Shown piece by piece: positions 4,805 through 42,136 of a stretch of DNA of 45,267 bases (positions are counted from its first letter, which is position 1; every line of letters starts with the position of its first letter). Both the position numbers and the translations under genes were made by a program. The notes beneath the pieces were generated by a model. It saw only the letters and a program-made list of their open reading frames with translations, ran no database searches and was not told where the DNA came from. The stretch spans positions 1 through 45,267 of the forward strand of contig JBNJGH010000018.1 of NCBI GenBank assembly GCA_051747585.1, written 5' to 3'. The stretch comes from Candidatus Rifleibacteriota bacterium. GTDB lineage: Bacteria > Muiribacteriota > Ozemobacteria > Ozemobacterales > Ozemobacteraceae.

Positions 4805-5165
4805 CAGCAATTATCCATTTAGTAATATTAGTAATTCTCGGTCAATCATTATTAGCTGGTTACAAAAAGTTCTGGTTTTATTTCTTTCTGTCAAATATAG
4901 AATTTAAACCACTGAGGCCACCGAGGGCACAGAGTTGATTTTTTAATCTTTTTCAGCCAGGATTTGTCCTGTGGACAAATAGCCGGCGGTTTCACCGCCC
5001 GGCTTTCTCTTCTATCTTTAATATTTTCTTTGGCTTGCTTTAATCTTTTTCTAATTTTTCTCTGCGCCCTTTGCGATCTTTGCGAGATTTCCTGCCTTCC
5101 TCTGTGGTTATTTTCTTTGTGGCTTTGCGACTTGGTGTGAGGAATTTTCTTTTCTGAAGCGGATT
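4805..5165 (+). repeat. Nested palindromic element A1 (family A, partial: lacks the 66-bp hairpin and right terminus), preceded by a 26-bp family-B terminus
   Basis: B end CAGCAATTATCCATTTAGTAATATTA 4805-4830, A terminus AGTAATTCTCGGT 4830-4842, AATCTTTTTCAGCC 4945-4958, hairpins ATTTGTCC-tgt-GGACAAAT and GCCGGCGGTTTCACCGCCCGGC; right flank matches A3/A5. Confidence 0.85.
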
Positions 5166-12765: not shown

Positions 12766-12978
12766 TAGTAATTATCCATTTAGTAATATTAGCGAGTTTC
12801 AAGACATTTTTGTATTTTTTGTTATGTACTAAATTTGAGCATATCAAAGATTGCTTCGCTCGCAATGACAGCCACAAATTGTCATTGCGAGGAGTTCTGC
12901 GTAGCTTTATGCGAAGCAGAACGACGAAGCAATCTAAATGTCTTGAAACGGTTTATACAAACAAATGGATAATTACTG
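12766..12978 (+). repeat. Nested palindromic element B1 (213 bp)
   Basis: Terminal IR TAGTAATTATCCATTT/AAATGGATAATTACTG; layer 2 GTTTCAAGACATTT/AAATGTCTTGAAAC; layer 3 AGATTGCTTCG/CGAAGCAATCT; inner hairpins TCGCAATGACA..TGTCATTGCGA and GTTCTGC..GCAGAAC. Confidence 0.9.
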
Positions 12979-17854: not shown

Positions 17855-18225
17855 CAGAAATTCTCAGTGAACCGTTATTAGGTTTTCTTCAAAAGTTTTG
17901 TCTTGATTTATTACTGTCAAATATAGAATTTTAACCACTGAGATCGCTGAGGGCACCGAGACGATTTTAAAATCTTTTTCAGCCCTTGTTCCCGGCAACA
18001 GCAGACTCTCAGAAAAGCACCAGTGTTTTTCTGAGAGTCTGCTGTTGCCGGGAAAGCCGGGCGGTTAAACCGCCCGGCTGATTGTCCAAAGGACAATCCA
18101 CGGCTGAAAAAGATTCTCTGTGTAACTCTGTGAGCTCTGTGGTTTTTTTCTGGCTGATTTGAGGCCTGGTTTAAGGAAAATCCTTTTTCTTAAACGAGTT
18201 AATAATCGCTAACCGAGAATTACTG
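17855..18225 (+). repeat. Nested palindromic element A2 (371 bp, complete)
   Basis: Termini CAGAAATTCTCAGT/ACCGAGAATTACTG; inner IR AATCTTTTTCAGCC 17971-17984 / GGCTGAAAAAGATT 18102-18115; 66-bp hairpin 17989-18054 followed by two short hairpins. Confidence 0.92.
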
Positions 18226-18304
18226 TAAAACGCAATGGGTACTTTAAATTTTTTCGTATTATGATATATTATTAATGAATAATGTTAGTTTTCCGGAGGA
18301 AAAA

Positions 18305-18817
18305 ATGGTTTATCGAGTATTACACTATGGTGAATCTCCATTAAGAAAAGAATCAGAAGAAATAAGCGAAATCAACGAAGAAATCGAAAAACTTGTTGAA
18401 GATATGTTTGAAACCATGTATGACAGCAATGGTGTAGGCCTTGCCGCTCCCCAGGTTGGCAAAAACATCAGGCTTTGCGTTATAGATACCGGCGACGATC
18501 CGTTGATTTTCATAAATCCAGAGATTATAAAAAAATCTGGAAAAGAAGTTGATGATGAAGGCTGCCTTTCATTACCCGGCCTGAGCGAAAAAGTTGCCCG
18601 CGCAACCACAGTAGTCGCCAGAGCAACTGACATTGACGGCAGTGAATTCGAAATCGAAGCAGAAGGCCTGCTGGCCCGCGCCATTCAACATGAACTTGAT
18701 CACCTCGATGGAGTTCTCTTTATCGATAGAATTTCTAAAGCACGCCGGCTGCAGCTCAAAAATGAGCTCGAGCTTATCCAACAAGGTGAAACAATTCAAC
18801 AGGAAGCGGTTGCATGA
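18305..18817 (+). CDS. def: Peptide deformylase
   Basis: GVGLAAPQVG, EGCLSLPG, QHELDHLDG; GGAGG SD supports ATG 18305. Confidence 0.97.
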   Translation: MVYRVLHYGESPLRKESEEISEINEEIEKLVEDMFETMYDSNGVGLAAPQVGKNIRLCVIDTGDDPLIFINPEIIKKSGKEVDDEGCLSLPGLSEKVARATTVVARATDIDGSEFEIEAEGLLARAIQHELDHLDGVLFIDRISKARRLQLKNELELIQQGETIQQEAVA

Positions 18818-19755
18818 GTTTAAACAAATACAGGGTAGTATTTATGGGCTGCCCTGATTTTGCGGTTCCATCTCTGCAAGCGTTGGTTGAAGACGAAAAT
18901 TTTTCTGTAAATGCAGTTTATTGCATGCCTGACAAACCAAAGGGTAGAGGCAAAAAGTTAGCCCCTACCCCGGTTAAAGTCTGTGCACAAAAACTGGGAA
19001 TCGAAGTTAATACCCCCTCTTCCTTTAAAAAATTCCCCGAAGAAATAGAAAAACTGCGAAGCTATAAACCTGACTTTCTCGTAGTTGTTGCCTATGGTCT
19101 GATTCTCCCTCAGGCGGTTTTAGACATACCGGCCATCGCTTCGGTCAATGTCCATGCATCTCTTTTACCGCTTTATCGTGGTCCCGCTCCGATTCATCAT
19201 GCAATTATGAATGGCGACAAAGTTACCGGCAACACCCTGATGCTTATGAACAACCGAATGGATGAAGGCGATATTCTGGCCACCTCAAAAGTTGAAATTG
19301 GCCCGGGCGATAACCTTGAAAAGCTTCACGATCGCCTTAGTCTCGACGGGGCAAAACTTTTAATTCCTACTCTTAAAAATTTTGCTGCGGGTAAAATTGA
19401 GCCACAGCCACAAAACCATGAACTGGCAACCTATACCGGCAAAATTAACAAAGAATTGGCTGCAATTGACTGGAATAAGAGCGCACCTTCGCTCTACAAC
19501 CTCATTCGTGCGATGAACCCTTACCCCGGTGCCTGGTTCAAAGACGGGAAAGAAAAAATAAAAGTTTTTACGGCAGAAATCGGGCCATCGACGCAAGCTG
19601 CCCCCGGCACCCTTTTAAGCAAAGAAAAAAAGATACAGGTTGCCTGCGGAGAGAATACCAGTCTATTTCTCACCACTCTTCAGCGCCCCGGAAAATCACG
19701 TCTCGACAGCGAATCTTTTCTGCGCGGTTATCAATTTAAGACCCATATCCTTTAA
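18814..19755 (+). CDS. fmt: Methionyl-tRNA formyltransferase
   Basis: VFMGCPDFA, PDKPKGRG, VVAYGLILP, NVHASLLP.YRGPAPI, MDEGDIL. Confidence 0.97.
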   Translation: MSLNKYRVVFMGCPDFAVPSLQALVEDENFSVNAVYCMPDKPKGRGKKLAPTPVKVCAQKLGIEVNTPSSFKKFPEEIEKLRSYKPDFLVVVAYGLILPQAVLDIPAIASVNVHASLLPLYRGPAPIHHAIMNGDKVTGNTLMLMNNRMDEGDILATSKVEIGPGDNLEKLHDRLSLDGAKLLIPTLKNFAAGKIEPQPQNHELATYTGKINKELAAIDWNKSAPSLYNLIRAMNPYPGAWFKDGKEKIKVFTAEIGPSTQAAPGTLLSKEKKIQVACGENTSLFLTTLQRPGKSRLDSESFLRGYQFKTHIL

Positions 19756-19970
19756 TAGTAATTATCCATTTTGTAATATAAGTGGGTTTCAAGACATTTT
19801 TGTTTCTTTTAAACATTAAATTTTAGAATATCAAAGATTGCTTCTTCGTTCTGCTTCGCATAAAGCTACGCAGAACTCATCGCAATGACAATTTGGGGCT
19901 GTCATTGCGAGCGAAGCGAAGCAATCTAAATGTCTTGAAACCTTTATTATAAAAACATGTAGAATTGCTG
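19756..19970 (+). repeat. Nested palindromic element B2 (215 bp); inner cassette inverted relative to B1
   Basis: Outer flanks colinear with B1; 19845-19917 matches the reverse complement of B1 12858-12925; right end AGAATTGCTG is family-A-like. Confidence 0.9.
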
Positions 19971-19994
19971 AATACTTTAAAGCTTGCAAATACT

Positions 19995-20012
19995 TTGATA
20001 TTTTTTGCACAA
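19995..20012. promoter_or_regulatory. Candidate Rex operator upstream of rex
   Basis: 18-bp TTGATATTTTTTGCACAA resembles the TTGTGAA-N4-TTCACAA consensus and lies just upstream of a possible -35 TTGCAA (20017-20022). Confidence 0.45.
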
Positions 20013-20076
20013 ACTATTGCAAATTTCTTTTTTTCTGTGATATTAACTCTTATACCAGTTTCAAGGAGAAAGAAAG

Positions 20077-20754
20077 TTGCCAAAAAAATCCGTACCCCCG
20101 CAAGCCACGATTCGACGACTTTCTGTTTATCTTCGCTATTTAAGCAGCCTTGAAAACGACGGTATACAAGTAGTTTCTTCTCAATCCCTGGCCGAACGCC
20201 TCGGTTTGAACTCTGCTCAGGTAAGAAAAGATCTCGCTTATTTTGGCGAAATGGGAAAACGCGGAGTCGGTTATAAAGTTAAGAAGCTACGTGATCACAT
20301 AATTAAAATTCTCGGGCTGCAGCATCTACGCAAAGTTGGCATTATCGGTGCGGGCGGACGACTTGGCCGCGCTCTTGCTCTTTATACCGGTTTTGAAAAA
20401 AGAAATTTCAAGGTTTCTGCCCTTTTCGATGTTGACCAGGAAGTGGTTGGAACAATGCTTGCGAGGGAAGCCGGTGCAATAATGCATATCGACGAATTAC
20501 CCCGGGCAGTTAAAGAACGAGAGATTGAAATTCTTATATTAACTGTTCCTGCCGAGGCAATAAAGTCTGTTTATGATATTGTTATGCTTTCAGGGGTTAA
20601 GGCTGTATTGAACTTTGCTCCTTTCAAGCTGATTTCAACCGAAGATGTAGTTGTACACAATGTCGATTTGACTACCGAGCTCGAATCGTTGAGCTATCAC
20701 CTGCAACTGCATGAATCCAGATGCGATCTTTTTAGTGCAAACAACGAAGACTAA
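20077..20754 (+). CDS. rex: Redox-sensing transcriptional repressor Rex
   Basis: P.ATIRRLSVYLRYL, SSQSLA, SAQVRKDLAYFGEMGKRGVGY, IIGAGGRLGRAL, ILTVP, LNFAP; TTG start with AAGGAG SD. Confidence 0.96.
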   Translation: MPKKSVPPQATIRRLSVYLRYLSSLENDGIQVVSSQSLAERLGLNSAQVRKDLAYFGEMGKRGVGYKVKKLRDHIIKILGLQHLRKVGIIGAGGRLGRALALYTGFEKRNFKVSALFDVDQEVVGTMLAREAGAIMHIDELPRAVKEREIEILILTVPAEAIKSVYDIVMLSGVKAVLNFAPFKLISTEDVVVHNVDLTTELESLSYHLQLHESRCDLFSANNED

Positions 20755-20797
20755 AACTAACAACTTTCTTAATTGAATTTTTTCTGGCAACGGCTGC

Positions 20798-21165
20798 CAG
20801 GAATTCCCGGTGAACATTTATCAGATGCTTACAAAAAGTTCTGGTTTTATTTTTTTAGGGCAAATAAAGAATTTAAACCACTGAGGCCACCGAGGACACA
20901 GAGTTGATTTTTTAATCTTTTTCAGCAAGGATTGTCCTTTGGACAATCAGCCGGCGGTTTCACCGCCCGGCTTTCTCTTCTTCAACAAGCCTTCAGAAAA
21001 GCACTCGTGTTTTTCTGAAGGCTTGTTGAAGAAGAGAACAATGGCTGAAAAAGATTCTCTGTGTTCTCTGTGTGCTCGGTGGTTATTTTCTTTGTGGCTT
21101 TGAGGCTTTGTGTGAGGCATAGTCTTTTCTGTTACAAACTGATAATCATTAACTGAGAATTGCTG
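20798..21165 (+). repeat. Nested palindromic element A3 (368 bp, complete); inner cassette inverted relative to A2
   Basis: Termini CAGGAATTCCCGGT/ACTGAGAATTGCTG; inner IR 20914-20926 / 21043-21056; short hairpins come first, then the 66-bp hairpin 20973-21038. Confidence 0.92.
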
Positions 21166-21181
21166 CACAGTTGCTCGAACC

Positions 21182-21211
21182 TTGACAGATATTGAATTTG
21201 AGTGATATTTT
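21182..21211 (+). promoter_or_regulatory. Sigma70 promoter for STAS-rel-udg
   Basis: TTGACA 21182-21187, 18 bp, TG-n-TATTTT 21206-21211; AGGAG SD 21234-21238. Confidence 0.6.
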
Positions 21212-24925: not shown

Positions 24926-27900
24926 ATGAGGAATCTCCTGGTTATTTTTCTTATGTTCTGCCTGTGCATTTTCATTGGCTGTCTCGGTATGAGCGGTTCA
25001 AGTGAAACCGGCACCATTACCGGCCCTACCCAACAAGACAGTATTTCACTCATTTCAGGAAGGGCATACTTTTCTGACCGCCAGTTGTATGGCTACATTC
25101 CAATCGCAGCTGTTAATGCTGCCGACGAACAAAGCGAATTAGTTTTTACCGACAGCGCAGGCTATTATAATTTTTATGAGCTAAAACAGGGAATTTACGA
25201 TCTGGTTGCTATAACCGGAGAAAGTGAAGTTACCTTCGCCCGCGGAGTTCAAGTTGACGGATCTAAACCGGTTCAGGTTTCGCAAACCGCTCTTTTAGGA
25301 TTAAGCGAAATAATTGTAAGCAATATCAGTTCAACTTCTTTTAAACTTAGTTTTAAATCCAACCGCGCCGCAAGAGCTTCAGTGGAATATGGACCTGTAG
25401 GCAGTTTTCAGGAGATTGTAACAATTGGGCAGGCTGGTGCCACTTATCATGAAGTCACTCTTACCGGTCTGAAACCATTTACCAATTATGAAGTATCTAT
25501 CTACCTTACCGGTGATGACGGGCAAACCTTTATTATGCGCGGCCTCTCTGCTGCAACTACTTCCGGCACTGGACCCGAAAATCTTATGGTAGCAATAAAT
25601 GAAGGCTTCTATGAAACCGACTCCCATAATGTAACCCTTGATCTTAACGCAGATAATGCTGCCGAAATGCGAATTGGCGAATCTTATGACCTTTCTGACG
25701 CAAACTGGGTAAGTTACTCTCCAACCTACGATTACAGCTTCAAAAGCCTTTCCCCCGGCACCAAAAGAGTATATGTTCAATTTAAAGACTCCAATGGGCA
25801 AACCTCTTCAATTCAAAACGATTCTATACTTTTGAATCAGACTGGATATATCGGTGTCTGGATAAACGATGGGGATGCCCTTACAAATAACACTGATGCG
25901 ATATTAAGCATTGCTTACCCCGGTGCAACCGAAATGAAACTTTCAAATTCTTCAAGCTTTATAAATTCTTTCTGGGAACCTTACATTGAAGTAAAAAAAT
26001 GGAAATTTGATTCGGAAGACGGCCTTAAAACAGTTTATTGCAAATTCAAAGGTGGCCAGGCAAATCCTGATGAGACTTTTACGGCGTCGATTATAGTCGA
26101 TACTACTCCCCCTGAAGTAAAGATGGAAATTAACGGTGGAGATTCCTATACTGCCTCTACCACTGTTTACCTCTCATTTAACTTCACTACTTTACCAACC
26201 GAGATGAAAATTGCCAACAGCGAAGCTCCAACCAGTGAGCAAAGCTGGATTGACTTTGAAACCCCTTATGAGTGGGAAGTCTCGACAGACGATGAAGAAA
26301 AAACTATATATGCACTTTTCCGTGACGGGGCAGGCAATGAATATGGCCCGATTTCAGAAATAATTGAACTGGATACCGCTGCTCCGACCGGTAACAGCAT
26401 CTCAATCAAATATGACGATGATGCTACGGGAGAAGATATTGAATTTGCCTTGACTGCAAGCCTTCCGGTTTTCCTCCATTTTGACGTAGCCGACGAATCT
26501 ACACATGAAGCAAGATACGCAATAACAGAAGCTACTACTACTGAACCTTTAAACTTAACCAGCGTAAGCGCTCCCTTTCCTCCAGTTGCTCTATATGAGG
26601 AACAAATACCGGTTGGAGAACATAAAATCTGGACTCAGTTTGCAGACGAAGCCGGAAATACCGGTTATTTTCAATCGCAACAGCTGACAGTTGACGGTCC
26701 CCAGATTATTATTTCACCGGAAAGCAGCGAACTTTTGTCAGATGACGAACAGCAATTCACTGCAACTATTAAAAACATTGAAATGCAGGATGTTGGCTCT
26801 ATCAGATGGCGTGTTATCAATGGATCTGGAACAATAGATGATGATGGGCTATACACTGCACCTGCGCCAATATATAAAAATTCACAAGCTACAGTAAGAG
26901 CAGACTCTACCGAAATATCAACCCTTTACAAGCACGCCACAGTTAATTTGCAGACTTCGGTTGAAATGCTTTTTCAGCAAAGAGGCGACAGCTTCGATTA
27001 TGATGAAATAGAAGATCAGGTCGCACCCGACCAGGAGTTTAACCAGCAAATTCAAATTCTGCACAGCAATCAGGGCATTGAAGTCAGTAGCCAACCCTCA
27101 GCAGGAACGGTTGCAGTTTCTGCTCCCGCCAGTTTTAATTATGGAGTTGTAGCGACCCTTACTTATAATGCTCCTGACGTTGCTCCCAGCCCCAACGAGG
27201 TTTTTATTGGTGTTCGTTCGGTCGAAAAGCCACAAACAGTAGTAGGCACAATCAGTTTACTTATCTCAACCGGCCCTAATATCGCTCTTTCCGCATCAAA
27301 CGACAAGGTTCAAAGAAATTCTCCAATCGATGTGTCTGCAGATATTAAAGGCACAGATGAAACCGATGTTAACTGGACCCTCAGCCCGGCCAATTGGGCA
27401 AGCTTTGATCAGAACGACAATTCCGTTAACACAACAACATCCAGCCCCGATCACGATGTTTCCATTTATGCCGCAGAACCTTCGCAAATTAAACAGGCGT
27501 CATTAACTGCAACCATAGATGGCACAAGCAAAAGTTACAATTTCTCTGTTTATCCGCCAATCAGCTTTCAGATTAATCCTGTCGCAACCTCAGCCCTGCC
27601 TTTAATAGACCCCATTACTTTCAAGGCACAGAGTTTTGATTATATGCTTGATACGGCAACTGAATCCGTTACCTGGGAATTCAAAAACGCAAGCCGCCCC
27701 GACTTCATGCCTGCTGACGGTAAAACTTATATCGACAGAGGCTCTTTGACGGTTATAGACTCTACAACAGCCGAATATAGAAGGCCTACTAAATTACCCA
27801 GCGAAACAGATACTACGGCAGCAGATTACATAGTTATAAGGGCAACAGCCAAATCAGACCCGACCGCTTCTAATACTGCGATCGCAACAATTACCCCCAA

Positions 27901-29398
27901 TGTAGAGGTTAAAGTCTATAAAACAATCGAAAAAGACAACCCCATAACCGAAGCAGAGACCGTAGCAGAAGTAGGTAAGATTCAATTCTTTGCTGATGTA
28001 ACTCCCAGTGTTATTGGCAATACGGCTGTAAGCTGGACAGTAAACGGAGTAACAGAATCTGAGCAGTATGGCAGCATCGACCAGAACGGACTTTATACAG
28101 CACCTGATGAAATCGTTGTAAACGAAGTAACGGTAAGAGCTTCTTCTGATTATGACCCAACTGCTTTTGCATCTGTAGACGTCTCTTTAAGCCCTTTCTG
28201 GATGCCAAAAAGACAAAATATGACAGACTCAATAACTGATGAATTAATGCCAATAGAATCTCTACTGGTCAATCCTTACACTGCAAGTGGTACAGGCTTT
28301 GAAGTTTATGCCGGCACCATAAAATATGGTGTGTGGCGTGCGTTCTTTTCCGACACACCTGGCGACACCAGCGGTGGCGACTGGGAGCCCATACAAAATT
28401 TATCCAGTGACAACCAGGAAGCCACAGGGAAATACTTTATTGGCTCTCTTGTTATTTCGCCGGACGAATATATATATGCAGGCACTAAAGACGGTATCTG
28501 GTATATTCCAACTTCCGGTGCTGCCCAAAAGGTAACAGGGGATGAAGCAGCAAACAACCCACCAGATGAAAACTATTTAAAATTAGAATTTCATACCCAG
28601 CATTCCGAATACCTGTTCGCCACAACTCCCGGTGGGGTTTACCGTCTGGAACTACAAGACCCCCAAACCTGCTCGGGATGGCAAAAAATACTTAATACAA
28701 CTGATCCCTTTAAAGATTCAGAATTAGAATCCCGAACAGATGACACTGCTTCTCCACCTGTAACTGTTTCTGCCTACACCAACACCTATAACGACAATCC
28801 TATAGACGGTATTCTGAAAACTATCGCCTATGATGACTATAATAACCGTCTTTATGCCGGTGGCGAAGACGGAATTTTTCTTTATATGAAAAACACATCG
28901 GTTCCCAATCTTATAGAAACAACCGCTGATGCTTTTGTTGCCAATCCTCCCAGTGTTGCTACGACCTTATCAAATTTTTACCTTCTTTCTGGTAATCAAC
29001 CAGAGCAAAATACCCTCGCTGCACCGCCTTTAGATATGGCCCTGGATCAGATTAATCGAAGCACCATCTGGGCAGCCACTGTCGGAGGAGTATATAGATC
29101 TGTTGACAACGGAACAACATGGACTGCTAAAGGATTTGGGACTGGTAGCACAGTCAACACAAGAGCTATAATTGTCGATCCGACAAACACTATCAACGTT
29201 CTTGCAGGTAGTGAAGACGGGCTTTACCGCTCAACCGATGCCGGTGGCAGCTGGAAACGAATCCGCAGCGGTCTTGGTAACCATAAAACTATAACCTGCT
29301 TAATTCAAGCAGCCGGTAGAGCAGGTGAGAGAAGAAAAGTCTGGGTCGGCACCGCCGGCGGAGTTTTTATGGGCCGCCAGTCCCTCGATTTAGAGTAA
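24926..29398 (+). CDS. Large acidic surface lipoprotein: carboxypeptidase-regulatory-like, FN3 and Ig-like repeats, C-terminal BNR/Asp-box beta-propeller
   Basis: Lipobox FIG|C; HEVTLTGLKPFTNY (FN3); repeated IN.G...T....V.L / G.K.VY..F.D; G.ID..GLYTAP twice; YRSVDNGTTW and YRSTDAGGSW Asp-boxes. Confidence 0.85.
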   Translation: MRNLLVIFLMFCLCIFIGCLGMSGSSETGTITGPTQQDSISLISGRAYFSDRQLYGYIPIAAVNAADEQSELVFTDSAGYYNFYELKQGIYDLVAITGESEVTFARGVQVDGSKPVQVSQTALLGLSEIIVSNISSTSFKLSFKSNRAARASVEYGPVGSFQEIVTIGQAGATYHEVTLTGLKPFTNYEVSIYLTGDDGQTFIMRGLSAATTSGTGPENLMVAINEGFYETDSHNVTLDLNADNAAEMRIGESYDLSDANWVSYSPTYDYSFKSLSPGTKRVYVQFKDSNGQTSSIQNDSILLNQTGYIGVWINDGDALTNNTDAILSIAYPGATEMKLSNSSSFINSFWEPYIEVKKWKFDSEDGLKTVYCKFKGGQANPDETFTASIIVDTTPPEVKMEINGGDSYTASTTVYLSFNFTTLPTEMKIANSEAPTSEQSWIDFETPYEWEVSTDDEEKTIYALFRDGAGNEYGPISEIIELDTAAPTGNSISIKYDDDATGEDIEFALTASLPVFLHFDVADESTHEARYAITEATTTEPLNLTSVSAPFPPVALYEEQIPVGEHKIWTQFADEAGNTGYFQSQQLTVDGPQIIISPESSELLSDDEQQFTATIKNIEMQDVGSIRWRVINGSGTIDDDGLYTAPAPIYKNSQATVRADSTEISTLYKHATVNLQTSVEMLFQQRGDSFDYDEIEDQVAPDQEFNQQIQILHSNQGIEVSSQPSAGTVAVSAPASFNYGVVATLTYNAPDVAPSPNEVFIGVRSVEKPQTVVGTISLLISTGPNIALSASNDKVQRNSPIDVSADIKGTDETDVNWTLSPANWASFDQNDNSVNTTTSSPDHDVSIYAAEPSQIKQASLTATIDGTSKSYNFSVYPPISFQINPVATSALPLIDPITFKAQSFDYMLDTATESVTWEFKNASRPDFMPADGKTYIDRGSLTVIDSTTAEYRRPTKLPSETDTTAADYIVIRATAKSDPTASNTAIATITPNVEVKVYKTIEKDNPITEAETVAEVGKIQFFADVTPSVIGNTAVSWTVNGVTESEQYGSIDQNGLYTAPDEIVVNEVTVRASSDYDPTAFASVDVSLSPFWMPKRQNMTDSITDELMPIESLLVNPYTASGTGFEVYAGTIKYGVWRAFFSDTPGDTSGGDWEPIQNLSSDNQEATGKYFIGSLVISPDEYIYAGTKDGIWYIPTSGAAQKVTGDEAANNPPDENYLKLEFHTQHSEYLFATTPGGVYRLELQDPQTCSGWQKILNTTDPFKDSELESRTDDTASPPVTVSAYTNTYNDNPIDGILKTIAYDDYNNRLYAGGEDGIFLYMKNTSVPNLIETTADAFVANPPSVATTLSNFYLLSGNQPEQNTLAAPPLDMALDQINRSTIWAATVGGVYRSVDNGTTWTAKGFGTGSTVNTRAIIVDPTNTINVLAGSEDGLYRSTDAGGSWKRIRSGLGNHKTITCLIQAAGRAGERRKVWVGTAGGVFMGRQSLDLE

Positions 29399-29430: not shown

Positions 29431-29566
29431 CTGTATCTAAAGTCGCTATCGGAATCGGAATCGCTTTTCGTCATTGCGAGGAGTGCAGCAACGAAGCAAT
29501 CTTATTCTTATCAAGAAAAGATATTTTAACTGTGATTGCTTCACTCCGCTCGCAATGGCAGCCACA
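29431..29566. repeat. REP-like doublet B4 plus family-C hexamer module between convergent genes
   Basis: GTCATTGCGAGGAG..CGAAGCAATC (29470-29501) faces GATTGCTTC..CTCGCAATGGC (29534-29559); same modules as the B1-B3 cores but arranged outward. Confidence 0.8.
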
Positions 29567-29577
29567 TTCAGCAACTT

Positions 29578-32500
29578 CTACCAGTCGGTAAATCTTAATC
29601 TATGTATACAATTTCCCGATTTATCTACGATATAAAGATCATCTTCCATTATAGTTATACCCCATGGCTCGGTAAATTCGCCCATATGCGGTGTAGTACC
29701 AACATTACCGAAAGAATAAAGCAAAGTACCATCAGGTGCCACAACATGAACCTTCGGATCCCCGGCAGTCGGATCTGTTATATAAAGGTTGCCCGAAGGC
29801 CCCTGAACTATATAATGAGCATTGTTTACCGTACCGCTATTCCAGACAACTGTATTCAATGAGCTATTAAGCTTAAGCAAACGATTATTAGCTTGCTCTG
29901 CAACAAAAATATTGGTTGAATCAACATAATTAATTCCAACTGGTGTGGTTACCGACTCATTATCTGAGTAGAATTCACCGTTATCTCGATCGATTTTTTT
30001 AACCATATTGTTACCACTGTCTGAAATGTAAATAGCATTGGCATCTATATTTAACCCTAAAGGATTATCAAATTCCTCATCACCAGTACCATGGTCATAA
30101 GGGTAGTCTATAACACCCAGGGATCCAAGGTCGCCAGTGTTCCAGCTTTGAATACGATAATCAGCTCCTGCATTGTTTCCAAGACTTACCAAAGTGGTTC
30201 CATCAACCGATAGATCAATAAAATTATGGGTATGGGAAGCAACAGCGGTTTCAGTAGCAATTTCAGTTAAATCACCGTCGGTTGTGAGACCAGTATTCAT
30301 GCGGGTCAGTTTTACAATACGACTATTACCTTCATCGATTGCAAATGCTGTTGTATTATCACTATTAACAATAGTTGCGGGCAAATTTAAAGTTGTTGGA
30401 CCTCCATTTGGATTGGAAAAAATAGAGTATGTTTCGGGCTCCCAGGTCCAGAAAGTGATGGTTGTAGTAGCCGTCTGAGCAAATTCGTCTTCACAAACAA
30501 CAGTATAGGTAAAGCTACCCGGGTCTTCGAAATTCAGAGTAAAGGTTGCGGCATTTTGAATGTTGGTTGCGCCCTCATACCAATGTAAGCGATCGGGTGG
30601 AATTATAGTACCAACTTCATTTTGTGCTTCCACGCTGAAAGTTAATGGCGCACCGGGGCTGGCAAGATATACCGGAATATGATTACCCGGAGACATGTAT
30701 TCAGGGCCATCTGCATATTTTACAGGACTTACGACAAACGGGTCTAGGGTAAAAGTTGGCGGTGTATCTATTAGAACCATGATTCTATCAGAACGCATCG
30801 TTCCCTGCGAATCTGTACCTCTGTATTCAATTGTCTGCCAACCTCTGTTTGCGACTCCAAAAATATAAGAATCACTCGAACCGGAACCTATAACAGTTGC
30901 TCCTTCTACCCAATACCATTCCATGTTGCCGGTCAAGTCATTCGAGCCGGTAAAACTGACATTAGCATCACTATCAAATCTTGTTCCGGAAGCCGGGCTT
31001 GTTATTTCAGGTAGTTCCATTCCTGTTGTCATTGTTCTGCTGACACTGTTATTAACACCGTATTCATCTTCTACTTCAAGCGAAATATTATAAGTACCTG
31101 TTGGCAAATCAGCTACCGTCGCATCGAAAGTGTCAACACCGGTTCTTAAACCAGTGCCTCCCTGATACCAGGTAAAGGATGCCGGGCTGATACTGACATT
31201 TCCCGAATCTGTGGCCAATCCCTCAAACAGAATATCCTGGCCACCAAAATACATTCCTCCATCGATCGGATATTTAATACTCACATCAGGCGGGTCATCG
31301 ACAAGTATGTCTATAAAATCCTCGGCCACAAGTCCTTTGCTGTCTGTGCCCACATAGGTAATTCTTGTAATACCCCTTGAGGGACTATAATTAATATCTG
31401 AGCCTGTTCCCATCAAGCCACCCGGGTCTGCATACCATTCTAAGGGAATACTCGATAAAGGATCAGAATTACCGATGAAGTTTATTGAACCTATATTATG
31501 AATTGAACCGGAAGCCGGACTAATAATTTCCGGATGCGTTATACCCGTAGTAATGTTGCAAAGAGCCTGCCCAACCTCACCAAAGTTATCTTCTGCCTCA
31601 AGTTTGATTTCAATGGTTCCTGTACCTAAGTCTCCAATGGTTGCAATGTAAGAATCTGTTCCCGTTGTAAGTAAATTAGTATCTATATACCAGCTCAGGT
31701 TTGAAGGAGGAATAGATGCATTTGCAGAATCTGTAGCATTACCGGAAAAAGTCAGCGTCTGCCCACCAAAATACTGACCGCCATTTGTTGGCGTAGCAAT
31801 ACTCACTGACGGATCATCGTTAACCAGAATCTGTATTATACCTTCCCTTGTGGTGCCGGAATCATCGGTGCCACGATAATGAATAGTCTTCAGGCCTCTG
31901 GTAAAGGTTGTAATGCTTGCCGAGGGTCCTGCGCCAAAAGCAAAAGCATCTTCGACACAATACCATTCCATGTCAACCAGACCGGTTAAATCGTTACCGC
32001 TGAAATTCACAGAGCTACCAATGCCAAACTCAGTTCCTGATGCCGGAGAGGAAATGACCGGCAGGCTGATACCTGTCTGAATGCTGTGGGTCACATTATC
32101 GGTAGAACCAAGATCATCTGTAATTTCAAGCTTTATGTTGCGGCTGCCGGTACCAAGATCAGCAATGGTGGCAGTAAAATTGTCAGTACCGCTTTTCCAT
32201 GGTACGGTGTCGAGATACCATTCAAAATTAGCTGAATCAACTGCTCCACCGCCTGAATCTTCTCCATTTCCCGCAATATTAAGAGTCTGGCCGCCAAAAA
32301 ATTTATCAGAATCAAGAGGCGCAGTAATGCTTGCAGTTGGCGGGTCATTAATTGTGATTTGAATTTCACCTTCTCTTGCAGTGCCGGCATCATCGGTGCC
32401 ACGATAATTAATGGTTTTCAGACCACGGCTGAAAGTCGAAATACTTGCCGCAGGCCCGGTGCCGAAAACAAAAGCATCTTCGACACAATACCATTCCATG

Positions 32501-35500
32501 TCAACCAGACCGGTTAAATCGTTACCGCTGAAACTGATGTTATGAACAAGATTATAACTACTGCCATCTGCAGGTGAAGAAATTGATGGATTCGAAATTC
32601 CTGTTTGAACGACATGAGTTACGGAGCCGGTGGATCCCAGGTCATCAGTTACTTCAAGTTTAATATTTCGTGTGCCGGTGCCGAGCTCGCCAATTGTAGC
32701 GGTAAAATTTCCGATACCGCTTTTCCACGAAGCGCCGTCAATCAACCATTTAAAACTGGCGGAATCTATAGCACTTCCATCTGAATCTGTTCCATTGCCT
32801 GAAATACTCAAAGTCTGGCCGCCAAAAAATTTATCAGAATCAAGAGGCGCAGTAATGCTTGCAGTTGGCGGGTCATTAATTGTGATTTGAATTTCACCTT
32901 CTCTGGTTGTGCCGGCATCATCGGTGCCCTGATAATGGATTGTTTTCAGACCACGGCTAAAGGTAGAAATACTTGCCGCAGGCCCGGTGCCGAAAACAAA
33001 AGCATCTTCGACACAATACCATTCCATGTCAACCAGACCGGTTAAATCGTTACCGCTGAAACTGATATTATGAACAAGATTATAACTGCTGCCATCTGCA
33101 GGCGAAGAAATTAACGGATTTGAGATTCCGGTTTGAATTGAATTGGTTACGGCACCTGTGGTTCCAAGGTCATCGGTACCTTCAAGTCTTATACTTTTTG
33201 TTCCTGTGCCAAGTTCGTCTTTAGTTGCTGTGAAGTTGGCAATAGTGCTTTTCCACTCCGAACCATCCAGATACCAGATAAAATTAGCAGCATCAACCGG
33301 ATCACCATTTATATCTGTTCCAGAACCACTAACATCAAGTGATTGGCCACCGAAATAATTTCCGCCATCTACAGGGTTATTTATAACCATTGTTGGCTCT
33401 TCGTTTACTATAATTTGTATATCAGCTTGTTTTAAAACACCCGCGCTGTCAGTTGCAAGATAGGAAATTGTCTTCGTTCCTCTGGTGGCAAATGAATGAC
33501 TTATATTTGCGCCACTGCCAAGAAATGCTTCGCTTGCTGTTCCATATTCCAGATACCATGACATTGTTATTGGCGGGTCACTGTCGGGAGTTCCTGCAAA
33601 ATTAACATTGGTCGCCAAAGCAAATTCACTGCCATCTGCAGGCGAAGTTATTGAAGGAGCTGAGAAACCGTAGTCAAAGCTGTAGGTTATGGTGCCAACA
33701 ACTCCATACTGGTCTTCACCGGTTAGAGTCAAATTATTTGTGCCAGTTGTCAAATCAGCTGATAAAAAGGTAACATCCTTTACAGCACTGTGATCAGGTG
33801 CTGAAATTGCGTTCAGATACCATTTTTTATCAGCATCTAAAATTTCATAAGCAGCGATACTGCCGGTACCAACTCCGGTAAACTCCACATCTGTTCCTGC
33901 AAAGAATTTCGAGCCATTTCCGGGAGTAAAATCCATCGAAGGCGGATCATCCATAAGAATCATAATCGTATCAGTGCTGGTATTTCCGCCATCATCAACC
34001 CCTGAATATGAGATTGTATTCCAGCCAGCGGGTAAAACATCTGAATAATTTGTTCCTGTTACTCCAGTATTTACATCGTTTAGAAACCATGACATCGTAA
34101 TTGAAGGCGATGCAGTAGAGCCAGTAAAAGCAACATCAGTTCCAAGATCATACCTTGTCCCGGAAGCAGGGGTTAAAATCTCGGCGGGCGGATGGCCATA
34201 AAATATGTCATTGCTAATTTCATTTGTTACGCCAACAGTATTTTCGCCCTCTGCTTTTATCTGCCGCCAGCCAACGCCAACTTCGCCGGGATTAACGGTT
34301 TCAGGAGAACCGGTTTTAAACGGACTACCGTCGCCATCCAGATACCAGTTTACGGTTGAGGGCACTATAGGTCCGCCTACAACAAGATCAAAGGGTTTAT
34401 CAACAAAAATTACCGATCCATCAGAAGGAGTAAAAGTTATAGTCGGGCTGTCGCTGACAATTACTCTTATGGTAGCAGAGGCGGGAATACCGGCAGAATC
34501 GGTTCCTATATAGGTTAGATAATGTATGCCATCAGGCGCGGTATAATTTAATGAACTCCCTGCTCCCATATAGGTAGCAGTTGCAACTCCGTAATTAAGC
34601 CACCATTCCATAGTTATGGGTCCAGTGCTGTCAGGCAACCCGGTAAAGTTATATTCAGTTGCCGAGGGTAAAATTTCATCGTTAAGCGGAGAAGTAATAG
34701 TGGCAGTTTGCACACCAAGATAAATGTTTTTTATTTCTCTGCCGACTGCATTTGTTATATCACTATATCCTCGCAATTCTACTTTTTTATAGCCGGCGCC
34801 AATAACAGCAAGTTCATCTTGATCAACAGTATACTTAGAAAATGAAGCCAATCTTTTTGCATCGTCTACATACCATGCCATACGAGAGCCTGGTATTACG
34901 CTGTTATCAAGTGTATCTGTCCCAAGCCCGTTAAAGTCAACATCCTGGCTTTCAAAAAATGCCGTGACATCGGCAGGAGTAAAAGCCATTTCGGGGAATT
35001 GCCCCACACTGATGTTAATACTGTCAGAGCTTATATAGCCTGTGTCATCTACACCAAAATAGCTTATATTATAGTATCCATCGGGTAACAGGGATGTAGA
35101 AACGCTTGCGCCATCGTCAATCTTTTCCTGACTGGCGGCATCACCGTAATTTGCCCACCATTCCATCTGGATCGAACCTGTGCTATCAGGAACACCCTGA
35201 AATTTTATTTCTTCTCCGGTCGTAAAGGTTGAATTATCTGCGGGTGAATTAATCTGAGCTTCTTGAACTCCGGTATTTATAGTCTGAGTTCTTGAACCAA
35301 CTGTTCCGTATGGGCCGGTTGCTTCAACTGTAAACTGGTTGCTCCCTGCGGGGATTTCATCTGCCTGGGTACCTTGATAGGCGGTAAAATTGTCACCGGT
35401 TTGCCAGCCACTGCCGTTAAGTAACCAGCGAACCGCATCACCGCTAATTGGGTCACCGTTTGTATCTGTGCAATTTGCAGTAAAATCGATGCCGTGACCG

Positions 35501-37932
35501 TTAAAAACATATGCATTATCTGCTGGTGAAACGGTAATTACCGGAATCCTTTCTACTACTACTCTTATCTCTGAGCTACTCAGATTGCCCTGACTATCGG
35601 TGGCAATATAACTTATAATGTGCTCTCCATTTGCCGGAGAATAGTTCTCATTAGCGTTACTGCCAAAACTTTTCGGGTCGTTACTGCTGTACCATTCAAA
35701 TTGGAGGGTGCCGGTTGAAACCGGAACCGCTACAAAGGGGATACCGTCACCGGGATCGAATCTGGTGCCCGAAGCCGGACTGGTAATGCTGGCAACCGGC
35801 CAGCCGATCTGAACATTATGGGTGTCGCTGACAGCTGTACCAAGATTGGCGGGTCCTTCTACTCTTACCTGATAAAGCCCGGGAGTCATCGTTCCTGTTG
35901 CAATGGTAAAAGATGAGCCTTCTTTCCAGATTTCGGGAAGATTATTCAGATACCATTTGAATTGTGCTGCATCCAGTGTGGTTCCATCTGAATCTGTGCC
36001 ACTGGCAATAAATTCAATGGAATTGCCTTCGAAAATCACATCTCTGTCTGAAGGCAAAAAAGTAATTCTTGCCGGCATGTCATACCAGACACTTATAGTT
36101 GTCGACCCGACAAGATCAACTGAGTCGGTTCCGATCAGACTGATGGTATGCTTTGCAGAACTCAATGAAGGCACTGTCACAACTGTTCCACTTCCCAGAA
36201 AGCCATCAATATCGGAATACCATTTGAAGGCCGCATCTTCAGTTATAGCACCATCTTCGTAATCGTCGATTTGCCCTTTGAAGGTTACCGGGGTATTGGC
36301 AAGATAACTTGCTCCGTCTGCAGGCTCCAGAATAGAACATACCGGCTTTGCATTTATTATTGATATTACTTTGGTTCCAGTTCCAATTACCCCAAAACTG
36401 TCACGACACTCAAGAGCTACAGTATAACTACCATGGCTCGGAAAATTATACGAAAATGACGCGACTCCGCTTTTCATAAATTGCAATTGCTCTGAAGGCG
36501 AGGCCAGATACCAGGTAAAATCTCGTGCCGGAATAGCGGCATTCAAATAATCTTTTGCTTCGGCGGCAAACTCTACAATTCCCGGCTCAAAATCTGCTTT
36601 GGCAGGCTTTGTAAATGTTACGATCGGCGCAGCCGTAACTTTCACATCGATTTCAGTTCGAGCTTCCCCCACTCCATCAGAAACTTCGAGCGTTATTTTG
36701 GCATTAAAGGTTTCCCCCAGATCAAGAGCCGGCGACTGCCATAAAATTTCTGCGCCGTCTGTATCGCTTAAGATAGAGCCTCTCGAAGTGCTCCAGTTAT
36801 ATTCCAAAGTTAAGTCTTCTGGAAAATCTGTATCTGCAACATACCTTGCTACAACATTACCCGAAATCTGAGCGGTGGCAGTTCCGGTAATAGCAACAGA
36901 GCGATTGACCGGCTGAACATAAATTTCACCCGGAAAAGAAATCGCGCCGGAAGAAGCCACACTAATATCCAGCTGGACAAAGCTGGTCAGGCGGGGAAAT
37001 GTACTGCCAATTTCACTGGCAGAAAAAACAATTGTCTCAGAGGCAGCTTTTGCCGGAATCGCCCAGTCTGCATAAGTGTCCGTTAAATAAGAAAAAGTTC
37101 CTACCTCAGCTTTCCATTCTATTGAAAGAGGGGCGCCTTCAGGATCAATTGCTTGCCCATCTACACGCAGAAAAGCGCTGTTTGGACTGGGTGAGTTACT
37201 TATCATCAGATTAACTACAGGCGCCTTGTTATCTATACCCCTAGTTGGCAACGTAAATCCTAAGACTGAAAGATAATCCGGATCAAAAGAACCAGGAATC
37301 AGATAAAATTCCGATTCAGCCAGATTTTTTTCCGGCGGCGGCTCGATTTTCAAACTTCCTGCAGCTTTTTCAGGCATATAAGGTGAGACATAATAGCCCG
37401 AAGAATCAAGTGTAAACTCTTCTCCCCAGAATGTAACTTTACATCGCCCGACTGGAATTTCACTCAGGTTTTTAACCTGTATGCGAATTCTGCTGTCAGC
37501 AAGGTCTTCTTCCTCTATTTGCAAATTAGCCTGCTTATTTGGGCTATCATTAGTTAAAGTTACATCTGCACTTCTGATCTTATACTTTCTACCACTGAGC
37601 GAAGTAATTCTGGCGATAATCCTGTAAGAGCCTAAAGGCAAGTTCTCAAATTTGAAATTTCCATCTTCATCTGCCCTGGTAGAGTAAGAAGGCATCTCTT
37701 CAATAAAAATAAAAGAATCAATAAACCTCCTGCTCGCAATATAAGATCCTTTTGAATCTTCATTTTGCCGCATTGAGGCAACCGCGCTGTCTATTTGAAT
37801 AGAGCCGGTAATTTCGCCATTAACAATTGCAGGTCCGACAGGAACGGCAGAACCTCCACCGCCACCTCCACCGCCACAACCAATAAACAGCAGCAGACCG
37901 ATAACGCAAGCTACAAATATCCTCAATGCCAT
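29578..37932 (-). CDS. Giant acidic surface lipoprotein/adhesin (2784 aa): many Ig/PKD-like repeats, C-terminal NHL beta-propeller
   Basis: Lipobox FIG|C plus Gly8 linker; recurring I.SPA(S/D)G..F...F.G...MEWY...I.Y.GTD..G units; C-terminal FDNPLGL..IYISDSGNN / FTEPWGI..LYIVDKSGN NHL motifs. Confidence 0.9.
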   Translation of the reverse strand: MALRIFVACVIGLLLFIGCGGGGGGGGSAVPVGPAIVNGEITGSIQIDSAVASMRQNEDSKGSYIASRRFIDSFIFIEEMPSYSTRADEDGNFKFENLPLGSYRIIARITSLSGRKYKIRSADVTLTNDSPNKQANLQIEEEDLADSRIRIQVKNLSEIPVGRCKVTFWGEEFTLDSSGYYVSPYMPEKAAGSLKIEPPPEKNLAESEFYLIPGSFDPDYLSVLGFTLPTRGIDNKAPVVNLMISNSPSPNSAFLRVDGQAIDPEGAPLSIEWKAEVGTFSYLTDTYADWAIPAKAASETIVFSASEIGSTFPRLTSFVQLDISVASSGAISFPGEIYVQPVNRSVAITGTATAQISGNVVARYVADTDFPEDLTLEYNWSTSRGSILSDTDGAEILWQSPALDLGETFNAKITLEVSDGVGEARTEIDVKVTAAPIVTFTKPAKADFEPGIVEFAAEAKDYLNAAIPARDFTWYLASPSEQLQFMKSGVASFSYNFPSHGSYTVALECRDSFGVIGTGTKVISIINAKPVCSILEPADGASYLANTPVTFKGQIDDYEDGAITEDAAFKWYSDIDGFLGSGTVVTVPSLSSAKHTISLIGTDSVDLVGSTTISVWYDMPARITFLPSDRDVIFEGNSIEFIASGTDSDGTTLDAAQFKWYLNNLPEIWKEGSSFTIATGTMTPGLYQVRVEGPANLGTAVSDTHNVQIGWPVASITSPASGTRFDPGDGIPFVAVPVSTGTLQFEWYSSNDPKSFGSNANENYSPANGEHIISYIATDSQGNLSSSEIRVVVERIPVITVSPADNAYVFNGHGIDFTANCTDTNGDPISGDAVRWLLNGSGWQTGDNFTAYQGTQADEIPAGSNQFTVEATGPYGTVGSRTQTINTGVQEAQINSPADNSTFTTGEEIKFQGVPDSTGSIQMEWWANYGDAASQEKIDDGASVSTSLLPDGYYNISYFGVDDTGYISSDSINISVGQFPEMAFTPADVTAFFESQDVDFNGLGTDTLDNSVIPGSRMAWYVDDAKRLASFSKYTVDQDELAVIGAGYKKVELRGYSDITNAVGREIKNIYLGVQTATITSPLNDEILPSATEYNFTGLPDSTGPITMEWWLNYGVATATYMGAGSSLNYTAPDGIHYLTYIGTDSAGIPASATIRVIVSDSPTITFTPSDGSVIFVDKPFDLVVGGPIVPSTVNWYLDGDGSPFKTGSPETVNPGEVGVGWRQIKAEGENTVGVTNEISNDIFYGHPPAEILTPASGTRYDLGTDVAFTGSTASPSITMSWFLNDVNTGVTGTNYSDVLPAGWNTISYSGVDDGGNTSTDTIMILMDDPPSMDFTPGNGSKFFAGTDVEFTGVGTGSIAAYEILDADKKWYLNAISAPDHSAVKDVTFLSADLTTGTNNLTLTGEDQYGVVGTITYSFDYGFSAPSITSPADGSEFALATNVNFAGTPDSDPPITMSWYLEYGTASEAFLGSGANISHSFATRGTKTISYLATDSAGVLKQADIQIIVNEEPTMVINNPVDGGNYFGGQSLDVSGSGTDINGDPVDAANFIWYLDGSEWKSTIANFTATKDELGTGTKSIRLEGTDDLGTTGAVTNSIQTGISNPLISSPADGSSYNLVHNISFSGNDLTGLVDMEWYCVEDAFVFGTGPAASISTFSRGLKTIHYQGTDDAGTTREGEIQITINDPPTASITAPLDSDKFFGGQTLSISGNGTDSDGSAIDSASFKWLIDGASWKSGIGNFTATIGELGTGTRNIKLEVTDDLGSTGSVTHVVQTGISNPSISSPADGSSYNLVHNISFSGNDLTGLVDMEWYCVEDAFVFGTGPAASISTFSRGLKTINYRGTDDAGTAREGEIQITINDPPTASITAPLDSDKFFGGQTLNIAGNGEDSGGGAVDSANFEWYLDTVPWKSGTDNFTATIADLGTGSRNIKLEITDDLGSTDNVTHSIQTGISLPVISSPASGTEFGIGSSVNFSGNDLTGLVDMEWYCVEDAFAFGAGPSASITTFTRGLKTIHYRGTDDSGTTREGIIQILVNDDPSVSIATPTNGGQYFGGQTLTFSGNATDSANASIPPSNLSWYIDTNLLTTGTDSYIATIGDLGTGTIEIKLEAEDNFGEVGQALCNITTGITHPEIISPASGSIHNIGSINFIGNSDPLSSIPLEWYADPGGLMGTGSDINYSPSRGITRITYVGTDSKGLVAEDFIDILVDDPPDVSIKYPIDGGMYFGGQDILFEGLATDSGNVSISPASFTWYQGGTGLRTGVDTFDATVADLPTGTYNISLEVEDEYGVNNSVSRTMTTGMELPEITSPASGTRFDSDANVSFTGSNDLTGNMEWYWVEGATVIGSGSSDSYIFGVANRGWQTIEYRGTDSQGTMRSDRIMVLIDTPPTFTLDPFVVSPVKYADGPEYMSPGNHIPVYLASPGAPLTFSVEAQNEVGTIIPPDRLHWYEGATNIQNAATFTLNFEDPGSFTYTVVCEDEFAQTATTTITFWTWEPETYSIFSNPNGGPTTLNLPATIVNSDNTTAFAIDEGNSRIVKLTRMNTGLTTDGDLTEIATETAVASHTHNFIDLSVDGTTLVSLGNNAGADYRIQSWNTGDLGSLGVIDYPYDHGTGDEEFDNPLGLNIDANAIYISDSGNNMVKKIDRDNGEFYSDNESVTTPVGINYVDSTNIFVAEQANNRLLKLNSSLNTVVWNSGTVNNAHYIVQGPSGNLYITDPTAGDPKVHVVAPDGTLLYSFGNVGTTPHMGEFTEPWGITIMEDDLYIVDKSGNCIHRLRFTDW
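31700..33400 (-). repeat. Intragenic 528-bp tandem triplication
   Basis: An identical 65-bp block at 31941-32005, 32469-32533 and 32997-33061 (period 528 bp = 176 aa). Confidence 0.9.
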
Positions 37933-37984: not shown

Positions 37985-38354
37985 TAGCAATTCTCGGTAA
38001 GCGACTATCAGCTTTTTTGAAACAGATTAAGCCTCACGACAAGCCTCAAATCCCCCAAAGAAAATAACCACAGAGCTCTCAGAGAATCACGGAGAATCTT
38101 TTTCAGCCATGGATTGTCCGGATGGACAATCAGCCGGCGGTTTCACCGCCCGGCTTTCTCAGCCACAGCAAGGTCTAAGAAAAGCACAAGTGTTTTTTTG
38201 AGACCTTGCTGTGGCTGAGAACAAAGGCTGAAAAAGATTGGAAAATCAGCTCAGTGCACTCTGAGCCTCCGTGGTTAAAATTCTATATTTTACAGAAAGA
38301 AATAATACCGGAACTTTTGGTAACCAGCTAATAATAATTGACCGAGAATAGCTG
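37985..38354 (-). repeat. Nested palindromic element A4 (370 bp, complete, minus orientation)
   Basis: Termini TAGCAATTCTCGGT/ACCGAGAATAGCTG; inner IR 38095-38108 / 38226-38239; 66-bp hairpin 38156-38221; followed by a family-B end fragment GCAATTATCCATTT..CCGTTTCAAGA (~38367-38402). Confidence 0.92.
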
Positions 38355-41948: not shown

Positions 41949-42136
41949 CAGTAATTATCCATTTGTTCATAATGACCGTTTTAAGACATTTAGATTGCTT
42001 CGCTCGCGCAGCGTGTCCGCTCGCAATGACAGCCCCAAATTGTCATTGCGATGAGCATCGCGAAGAAGCAATCTTTGATATTATAAAATTTAATGTTTAA
42101 TAAAAAATCAGCTCGGTGATCTCTGTGGTGAATTAC
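41949..42136 (-). repeat. Nested palindromic element B3 (minus orientation, chimeric far end)
   Basis: CAGTAATTATCCATTTG terminus, TTAAGACATTTAGATTGCTTCG, TCGCAATGACA-gccccaaat-TGTCATTGCGA, GAAGCAATCTTTGATA; ends in family-A-like AAAATCAGCTCGGTG..CTCTGTGG. Confidence 0.85.

Follow-up and report, generated by a model that had tools for sequence, protein, structure and literature searches.

Repeated inversion of a hairpin cassette and its tip within a nested, dispersed mobile element of a Candidatus Rifleibacteriota genome

Here, we analyze a contig of 45,267 nucleotides from a Candidatus Rifleibacteriota bacterium (GenBank assembly GCA_051747585.1, contig JBNJGH010000018.1; the whole stretch is hereafter called the window) and a repeat element, family A, of which the window carries five copies. 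Family A is a nested repeat, with a MITE (miniature transposable element with inverted repeats) as its shell, a middle unit of about 215 bp, and, within that, an invertible three-hairpin cassette whose long hairpin ends in an invertible tip. Comparison of the copies across the genome confirms that the cassette was inverted repeatedly and not in one ancient event. This rare inversion, recurring at two levels, is accompanied by copying between the arms of hairpins, the hallmarks of a MITE, related autonomous elements in other genomes, and a signal of recombination among copies. Most likely, the flips are not a programmed genetic switch and instead represent ordinary DNA-copying slips at mirror-image sequences, and we consider template switching at the nested inverted repeats to be their probable cause.

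The window is contig C18 of a short-read genome, G000, of 4.1 Mb in 330 contigs, which is 93.6% complete and in which contigs often break inside these repeats. All five copies, A1 to A5, are present at the positions reported in an earlier reading of the window made from its letters alone (the sequence-only reading). The cassette lies between 14-bp inverted repeats, and its order, judged against the asymmetric outer flanks, is long-hairpin-first in A2, A4, and A5 and short-hairpin-first in A3 and A1, as that reading had it. The full copy A2 (17855-18225, plus strand) lies between priA and def; its left middle arm, made of three phased CACNGAG-type units that resemble the GxxExxY arms discussed below (17934-17960, plus), and its left 14-bp repeat, the cassette boundary (17971-17984, plus), are followed by the cassette (17985-18101, plus), with the long hairpin at 17989-18054 and then two short hairpins, by the right 14-bp repeat and right middle arm (18102-18143, minus), and by the right terminal inverted repeat (18211-18225, minus), past which a weak -35-like hexamer starts at 18243. 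A3 (20798-21165, plus), likewise full and located downstream of a Rex-like gene, has one terminal mismatch in its left arm; the left middle arm, a T-rich spacer, and the left 14-bp repeat occupy 20877-20927 (plus), the cassette (20928-21042, minus; long hairpin 20973-21038) is reverse-complemented relative to that of A2, and the right 14-bp repeat with the right middle arm (21043-21083, minus) and the right terminal inverted repeat (21151-21165, minus) complete the copy. A4 (37985-38354, minus; cassette 38109-38225) is full and has a target duplication matching at 8/9 positions, and A5 (44122-44447, plus; cassette 44207-44323) is without its left end. The variant A1 (4829-5165, plus), which a family-B-type end precedes at 4805, keeps both short hairpins, the two noted previously, with the long hairpin and the right 14-bp arm replaced by about 100 bp that recur at C13:13863 and C126:8949. 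The tip, read in the cassette's own frame, is G..T in A2 and its reverse complement, A..C, in A3 and A4, which bears out the separate tip flip described before, and is symmetric (A..T) in A5. Chance does not account for these structures: folding of A2 and A3 gives z of about -14, with 0 of 100 shuffles equally good, and G000 contains 191 occurrences of the 14-bp arm, against 0 for a reversed control, with 0-2 in each of five same-genus genomes.

The genome-wide collection of copies proposed in the sequence-only reading was carried out by BLAST with the five window copies as queries and yielded 215 loci in G000. A cassette was counted when the long-hairpin tip and the two 14-bp arms were all present, resulting in 108 cassettes; two of these, with two long hairpins each, were excluded, and the remaining 106, of normal length, were scored relative to the spacer of the middle arms, which is asymmetric, giving 66 short-hairpin-first and 40 long-hairpin-first. 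The same cassette, with the tip masked, is found in both orientations (C21:34060 and C314:283 versus C10:45141), and both orientations are present in 4 of 9 multi-copy cassette clusters. On the cassette tree, 17 orientation changes are required, and well-supported branches force 6 of these; grouping the 40 long-hairpin-first cassettes together is rejected by the approximately unbiased (AU) test (p ~5e-75); the flank-only tree (62 copies with both flanks) has 11 changes, and a single change is seen in 0/200 bootstrap trees. Inverted cassettes of the youngest subfamily have young-type flanks in 3/3 testable cases (11-13.5% versus 20-22% distance) and therefore are not old copies with a replaced cassette. 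That one ancient inversion gave rise to two subfamilies, or that the flips are artefacts of assembly, is extremely improbable: orientation is indeed clustered on both trees (0-1 of 500 shuffles are as low), and many of the 330 short-read contigs end in these repeats, but the AU test and the identical cassettes in both orientations speak against two monophyletic subfamilies, which the sequence-only reading had named, together with assembly artefacts, as what would overturn it. The junction common to the two orientation forms is only 14 bp, shorter than the words from which assemblies are built, and independent contigs contain both forms, so that assembly is not the cause of the flips. In particular, record 1 of the independent assembly X1, from a strain about 1% divergent, contains the A2 junction: it begins in unique DNA and spans the A2 cassette completely, with unchanged orientation and 4 differences, and X3 record 22 and X4 record 29 join a left flank to the short-first form (runs X2-X4, with small word shares, were used only for the presence of junctions). 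The 22 runs listed all consist of contigs, and A3 is spanned by no independent piece in them.

The youngest subfamily (44 copies, with cassettes about 2% from consensus) indicates how often each layer flips. Cassette orientation in these copies is 39:5 and the asymmetric tip 29:9, both far from 50:50 (p 1e-7 for the orientation skew), and the 39:5 ratio implies that flips are rare. The tip flips as a block: among 32 modal-stem copies, a group of 20 and a group of 6 are exactly reverse-complementary to each other across mismatch plus loop, with no crossed mismatch/loop combinations. Tip state and cassette state are independent of each other (Fisher p 0.25). The loop of the third hairpin is inverted in 1 of the 44 young copies, no flip of the second hairpin was seen among them, and 67/67 copies with both outer flanks agree in the direction of their middle arm layer, without an observed inversion, so that not every layer flips. 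Hence, the earlier proposal that each nested layer inverts independently is too broad, although it holds for the cassette and the tip. If the copies are independent, flips would occur at about 5-15 times the per-site rate of point change, which would be far too slow for phase variation.

Inversion also occurs in family B, a MITE with the same kind of ends and a different hairpin cargo that is represented by 139 BLAST loci in G000. Two copies in the window (19756-19970 and 12766-12978, both plus) have cores in opposite orientation, and a third lies at 41949-42106. Among 48 oriented loci of 70 found, the core is split 29 versus 11 and the outer layer 42 versus 2. The inner repeats of family B are unrelated to those of family A, so the process does not depend on a particular repeat sequence, and a dedicated invertase becomes less likely. 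The hairpin cargo of family B is of GTCATTGC type and resembles motifs related to Ssn; its arms contain modular insertions, and two of its layers invert.

A site-specific invertase would make the cassette a phase-variable switch before the neighboring promoter. The perfect 14-bp inverted repeats and the location of the elements just upstream of promoters are compatible with this, as is the inversion of Correia elements, reported and linked to phase variation in the available part of PMC10969869; still, we regard such an enzyme as very unlikely. The layers and families that flip have no repeat sequence in common, the orientation skew in young copies is strong, A2 has kept its orientation in the strain about 1% divergent, and more than 100 bp separate the cassette from the promoter downstream of it, which is intact. 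Furthermore, G000 has no serine resolvase, and its two tyrosine recombinases are in housekeeping settings, neither beside an element.

The long hairpin records a second process. There are 67 distinct stems among the 108 copies, and the stem changes in 88 distinct hairpins are found in both arms in 511 cases versus 63 unpaired (13 versus 4 in 43 young copies, one register-shifted copy excluded). Of 105 copies (three register-shifted copies excluded), 82 have a mismatch at position 4 from the loop, against at most 4 at any other position; the kept mismatch reads G-T on one strand and A-C on its complement. Synthesis that folds back and is primed at the tip would perfect the stem and spare position 4; a protein reading the mismatch would also explain its retention. 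At C115:5969 and C52:21141, the same change is present in both 14-bp arms across the 116-bp cassette, and thus arm copying reaches the 14-bp layer too.

Template switching probably accounts for the flips. In the course of replication or repair, a polymerase would switch template at inverted repeats; when the tip folds back and primes copying, the stem would be made perfect, with the tip mismatch staying inside the primer; a rarer switch to the other strand would invert the segment between two arms; and recombination among the many copies would then shuffle flanks and cassettes. Neither a dedicated invertase nor a switch function would be needed. The part of PMC8604942 available to us describes template switching that homogenizes arms and inverts spacers, repeatedly and reversibly, and family A shares both outcomes. 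Thus, between the two mechanisms offered by the sequence-only reading, template switching fits and site-specific inversion is unlikely, and its statement that no described element behaves in this way needs qualification: the behavior is known in principle, from the same part of PMC8604942, and no case of inner inversion in a bacterial MITE was found in a literature search of incomplete coverage that excluded supplements.

The copies also exchange sequence. Over 43 flank sites in 27 young full copies, linkage decays from r2 0.295 at 1-5 bp to 0.041 at distances above 100 bp (permutation p 0.001), with 73% of distant site pairs incompatible, and in two chimeras (C52:1341 and C92:8219) the middle hairpin is flanked by two long hairpins that differ from each other, probably as a result of crossovers between oppositely oriented copies; from the linkage decay and the two chimeras, it follows that copies recombine. 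Private changes in these 27 copies are similarly frequent in flanks and cassette (1.7, 1.3 and 0.9%), but shared minor variants amount to 4-5% in the flanks and 0.3% in the cassette; either variants of older copies are imported into the flanks, or a single cassette swept through older shells. The long-range flank patchwork could partly come from assembly, an explanation that is harder to apply to the decay within 100 bp. The same linkage decay, incompatible pairs, and chimeras also speak for a reading in which the inversions arose mainly by gene conversion from other copies, with palindromic or repeat-bounded donors pairing in reverse and host recombination copying a tip or an entire cassette backwards. 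We find this doubtful, as long co-linear flank homology should favor pairing in the same direction, part of the long-range patchwork could be assembly chimerism in a short-read genome, and the copy-specific perfect stems without a donor elsewhere (67 distinct in 108) make arm copying within a copy necessary anyway.

Several observations weigh against passive template switching. The flips in the available part of PMC8604942 span 2-5 bp in yeast genes, whereas those in family A involve about 116 bp, nested levels, and a dispersed repeat, and the 116-bp cassette, with its 14-bp arms, flips little more rarely than the 10-bp tip (5/44 versus 9/38). In 62 older copies, the stem diverges from consensus by 35% and the tip, the short hairpins, and the 14-bp arm by 5, 10, and 3%, respectively; passive error does not explain why the latter (3-10%) are far better conserved than the stem, and something conserves this scaffold. 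Young cassettes are far more uniform than their flanks, which differ by 9-11% in 47 pairs with identical cassettes. The well-supported branches of the flank tree, taken alone, force no more than one orientation change.

Some of these features, namely the uniform cassette amid patchwork flanks and the conserved tip with its kept, strand-marking mismatch, would be accommodated by a protein-driven nick-and-copy process, which we consider unlikely. A nuclease that binds hairpins, the best candidate being the GxxExxY family, whose arms surround the core, would nick the folded single strand, and repair synthesis would copy arm from arm, flip the tip in the manner of hairpin transfer in rolling-hairpin replicons, and move the cassette into other copies either way. 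Inward-facing phased CACNGAG-type arms bracket 9/19 GxxExxY gene loci on both sides, compared to 12/540 control windows, and this arm motif matches 99 and 103 of the 106 family-A arms. The middle unit of about 215 bp, with its GxxExxY-type arms, also occurs alone without a target duplication (3/18 cores lacking the usual outer flanks versus 19% in the control), and hairpin repeats with a cognate single-strand nuclease exist, as described for Ssn in the available part of PMC11893778. However, a GxxExxY (PF13366) gene, present in 13/41 searched genomes of the phylum, was found neither in the 93.6%-complete G000 nor in any of the 5/5 same-genus genomes; no cassette motif occurs near any GxxExxY locus examined; family B flips without GxxExxY-type arms; an obligate flip-flop would give tips at about 50:50, against 29:9 in young copies; and the activity of GxxExxY proteins is itself putative. 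A literature search of incomplete coverage found nothing linking GxxExxY to repeats. In an extension of this reading, which we think improbable, the hairpin cassette would be a parasite of a parasite: a GxxExxY-type nuclease would start nick-and-copy at the middle arms or the conserved mismatched tip, with one arm rewritten from its partner, nested layers flipped, and a cassette allele homing into further copies, and a promoter-seeking ISNCY MITE would carry the unit to new sites.

The middle unit has counterparts among known systems. Like REPINs, as presented in the available part of PMC3337134, the family-A core is an inverted-arm doublet with a copy-variable spacer that still forms a hairpin and with imperfect palindrome tips; unlike REPINs and their RAYTs, its arms match GxxExxY-flanking repeats, and the unit is nested in a DDE-type MITE. 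No matching RAYT was found, the one Y1 gene of G000, at a contig end, having other repeats on its visible side. The SRM/NTS repeats of Ssn, according to the part of PMC11893778 at hand, frame a small nuclease gene and are also dispersed, and the family-B core shares their GTCATT start, whereas the family-A arms differ in kind; in G000, no such repeats lie next to the short GIY-YIG gene.

The outer shell of family A is a MITE whose right end lies 16 bp before a -35 box. Family A is non-coding (no open reading frame of 100 aa in any copy) and dispersed, with terminal inverted repeats that start with CAG and 42 copies with both ends; among these, 23 have a 9-bp target duplication matching at 8/9 or more positions, compared to 0.5% of mismatched-pair controls, although A2 and A3 score only 5/9 and 6/9. 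Between the two outer terminal repeats of a copy, there is no co-variation (p 0.62). A TTG[AC] motif is located 15-19 bp past the right end, mostly at +17, in 31/57 copies, versus 4/58 at the left end; the right end of A3 lies 16 bp before TTGACA (21182), part of a sigma-70-like promoter match (21182-21211, plus) that is the likely insertion target. The comparison of orthologous sites suggested by the sequence-only reading revealed a priA-def spacer without the element in 3/3 same-genus genomes with a def match (G002, G003, and G005; G001 and G004 have no def match), the spacers being too diverged to place the exact insertion site. No full family-A element was found in a second genome, and no orthologous filled site beyond run X1; exact-pattern scans of other genomes for the cassette or its junction returned 0 loci or unrelated ones only (2 loci; 1 metagenome), and A3 used as a DNA query matched 5/40 relatives weakly and by its arm part alone. 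A strict terminal-end pattern searched in genome contigs gave 7 matches, all by chance. MITEs with the same ends and other interiors occur in relatives (L098, L102, L104, L106, L110, L111, L093, and L099), several of them carrying GTCATT-type hairpin doublets. Apparently, different hairpin repeats are acquired by the shell time after time. Family A resembles the Correia elements, as covered in the available part of PMC10969869, in being short and non-coding, with terminal repeats, a target duplication, and many promoter-near copies, but differs in that its shell has a fixed orientation to the promoter and its inner layers flip, whereas whole-element inversion has been reported for Correia; the passages of that source on inversion, nesting, and hairpins contain nothing like inner-layer flips.

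The family-A end motif is present in 24/50 genomes of the same family, and relatives harbor complete insertion sequences with the same ends: L092/L112 (G006), L113, L123, L129 (G024), and L115 (G022). The element at L092:231-2003 (G006:C55:48330-50102) is 1773 bp long, with a perfect 9-bp duplication and TTGACA at +17, and encodes a 485-aa transposase that weakly matches the DDE_Tnp_1, IS4, and IS701 models and does not match the ISLre2, ISKra4, or IS256 (Mutator-type) models. Homologues of this protein are annotated as 'ISNCY family transposase' in 3/17 plasmid records, with about 31% identity to these three over 82-87% of the query, and the plasmid elements have CAG ends in 7/8 cases and a perfect 9-bp duplication in 4/8. 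Beside the same-end insertion sequences of relatives, a -35 motif is found at 7/9 downstream ends versus 2/10 upstream ends, kin being non-independent, and only two of the 8 plasmid copies, both gammaproteobacterial, clearly show it. In the ISNCY-type family that includes L092, L113, L115, L123, L129, L141, and L142, the downstream ends with the motif lie 15-18 bp before the -35 box.

Family A was probably mobilized in trans by a DDE transposase of ISNCY type similar to those that have the same ends in relatives. Against this stands that no cognate transposase was found in G000, where the best match is 25% identical and without these ends. Collapsed insertion sequence copies are often missing from short-read assemblies. 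The CAG-ended ISNCY insertion sequences share the terminal motif and the 9-bp duplication with family A, which, unlike them, is non-coding and carries hairpin cargo. This CAG-ended, 9-bp-duplication group is presumably the ISMae2 group of ISfinder. The ISMae2 subgroup term is absent from PMC9208149.

The position before promoters initially recalls other enzymes. In the available part of PMC3942029, p-MULT 3 (ISLre2/TnGBS) and ISKra4 insert in an oriented manner, so that 16 bp separate the -35 box from their right end, and they share with family A a terminal C, an 8-9 bp duplication, and oriented insertion 15-17 bp upstream of -35. Unlike in those families, the transposase with family-A ends is not Mutator-like, and assignment of the shell to ISLre2/ISKra4 from promoter position was rejected, that transposase matching no Mutator-type model; in G000, no Mutator-like transposase was found in searches of which two had silent controls. 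Promoter targeting looks convergent with ISLre2/ISKra4. No description of oriented insertion before -35 boxes by ISNCY elements was found in literature of incomplete coverage, with supplements excluded. Other mobile genes of G000 (IS1380, IS1182-like by our own label, Y1, GIY-YIG, group II, and retron-like) were discarded as candidates, being without these ends or away from the elements. They include a group II intron reverse transcriptase (C198:1369-2844), a retron-like reverse transcriptase below the cut-off (C43:22945-23802), and an IS1380 transposase (C47:3317-4618), none of which has a copy beside it; the proposed search for copies flanking a Y1, nuclease, recombinase, or reverse transcriptase gene revealed none with matching repeats in G000.

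With about 100 copies of one element, family A amounts to a natural experiment on palindrome evolution in bacteria, in which arm copying, flips of 10- and 116-bp spacers, and a protected tip mismatch can be counted. Of possibly greater importance than the flips are promoter targeting and the core with GxxExxY arms, which links such arms to a unit that is mobile and carries no gene; importance of the finding as a regulatory switch is unlikely. An ISNCY-type family inserting 16 bp before -35 boxes would have a geometry that the available part of PMC3942029 gives for Mutator-like enzymes alone, a hint that RNA polymerase has been exploited convergently to guide insertion. If the parasite-of-a-parasite reading were true, it would provide a mechanism for the GxxExxY family and a new kind of non-coding mobility.

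The window also holds housekeeping genes, and the named homologues of its fmt gene belong to Candidatus Riflebacteria. The gene survey of the window identified no transposase or recombinase genes, in agreement with the sequence-only reading, and an Rfam scan of the window gave no match. The right flank of family A (about 21085-21120 in A3, and the same part elsewhere) includes an extra unpaired run of three 9-bp phased units that resembles another GxxExxY-type arm, with a similar stretch in an element of G002 (L107). A lone family-A-type arm at 42108-42129 is fused to the family-B copy at 41949. Two genes encode large surface-type proteins with Ig-like domains, of 2784 aa (29578-37932, minus) and 1490 aa (24926-29398), the former containing 528-bp internal repeats, and between them, at 29446-29584, lies another small repeat with a GTCATTGC hairpin.

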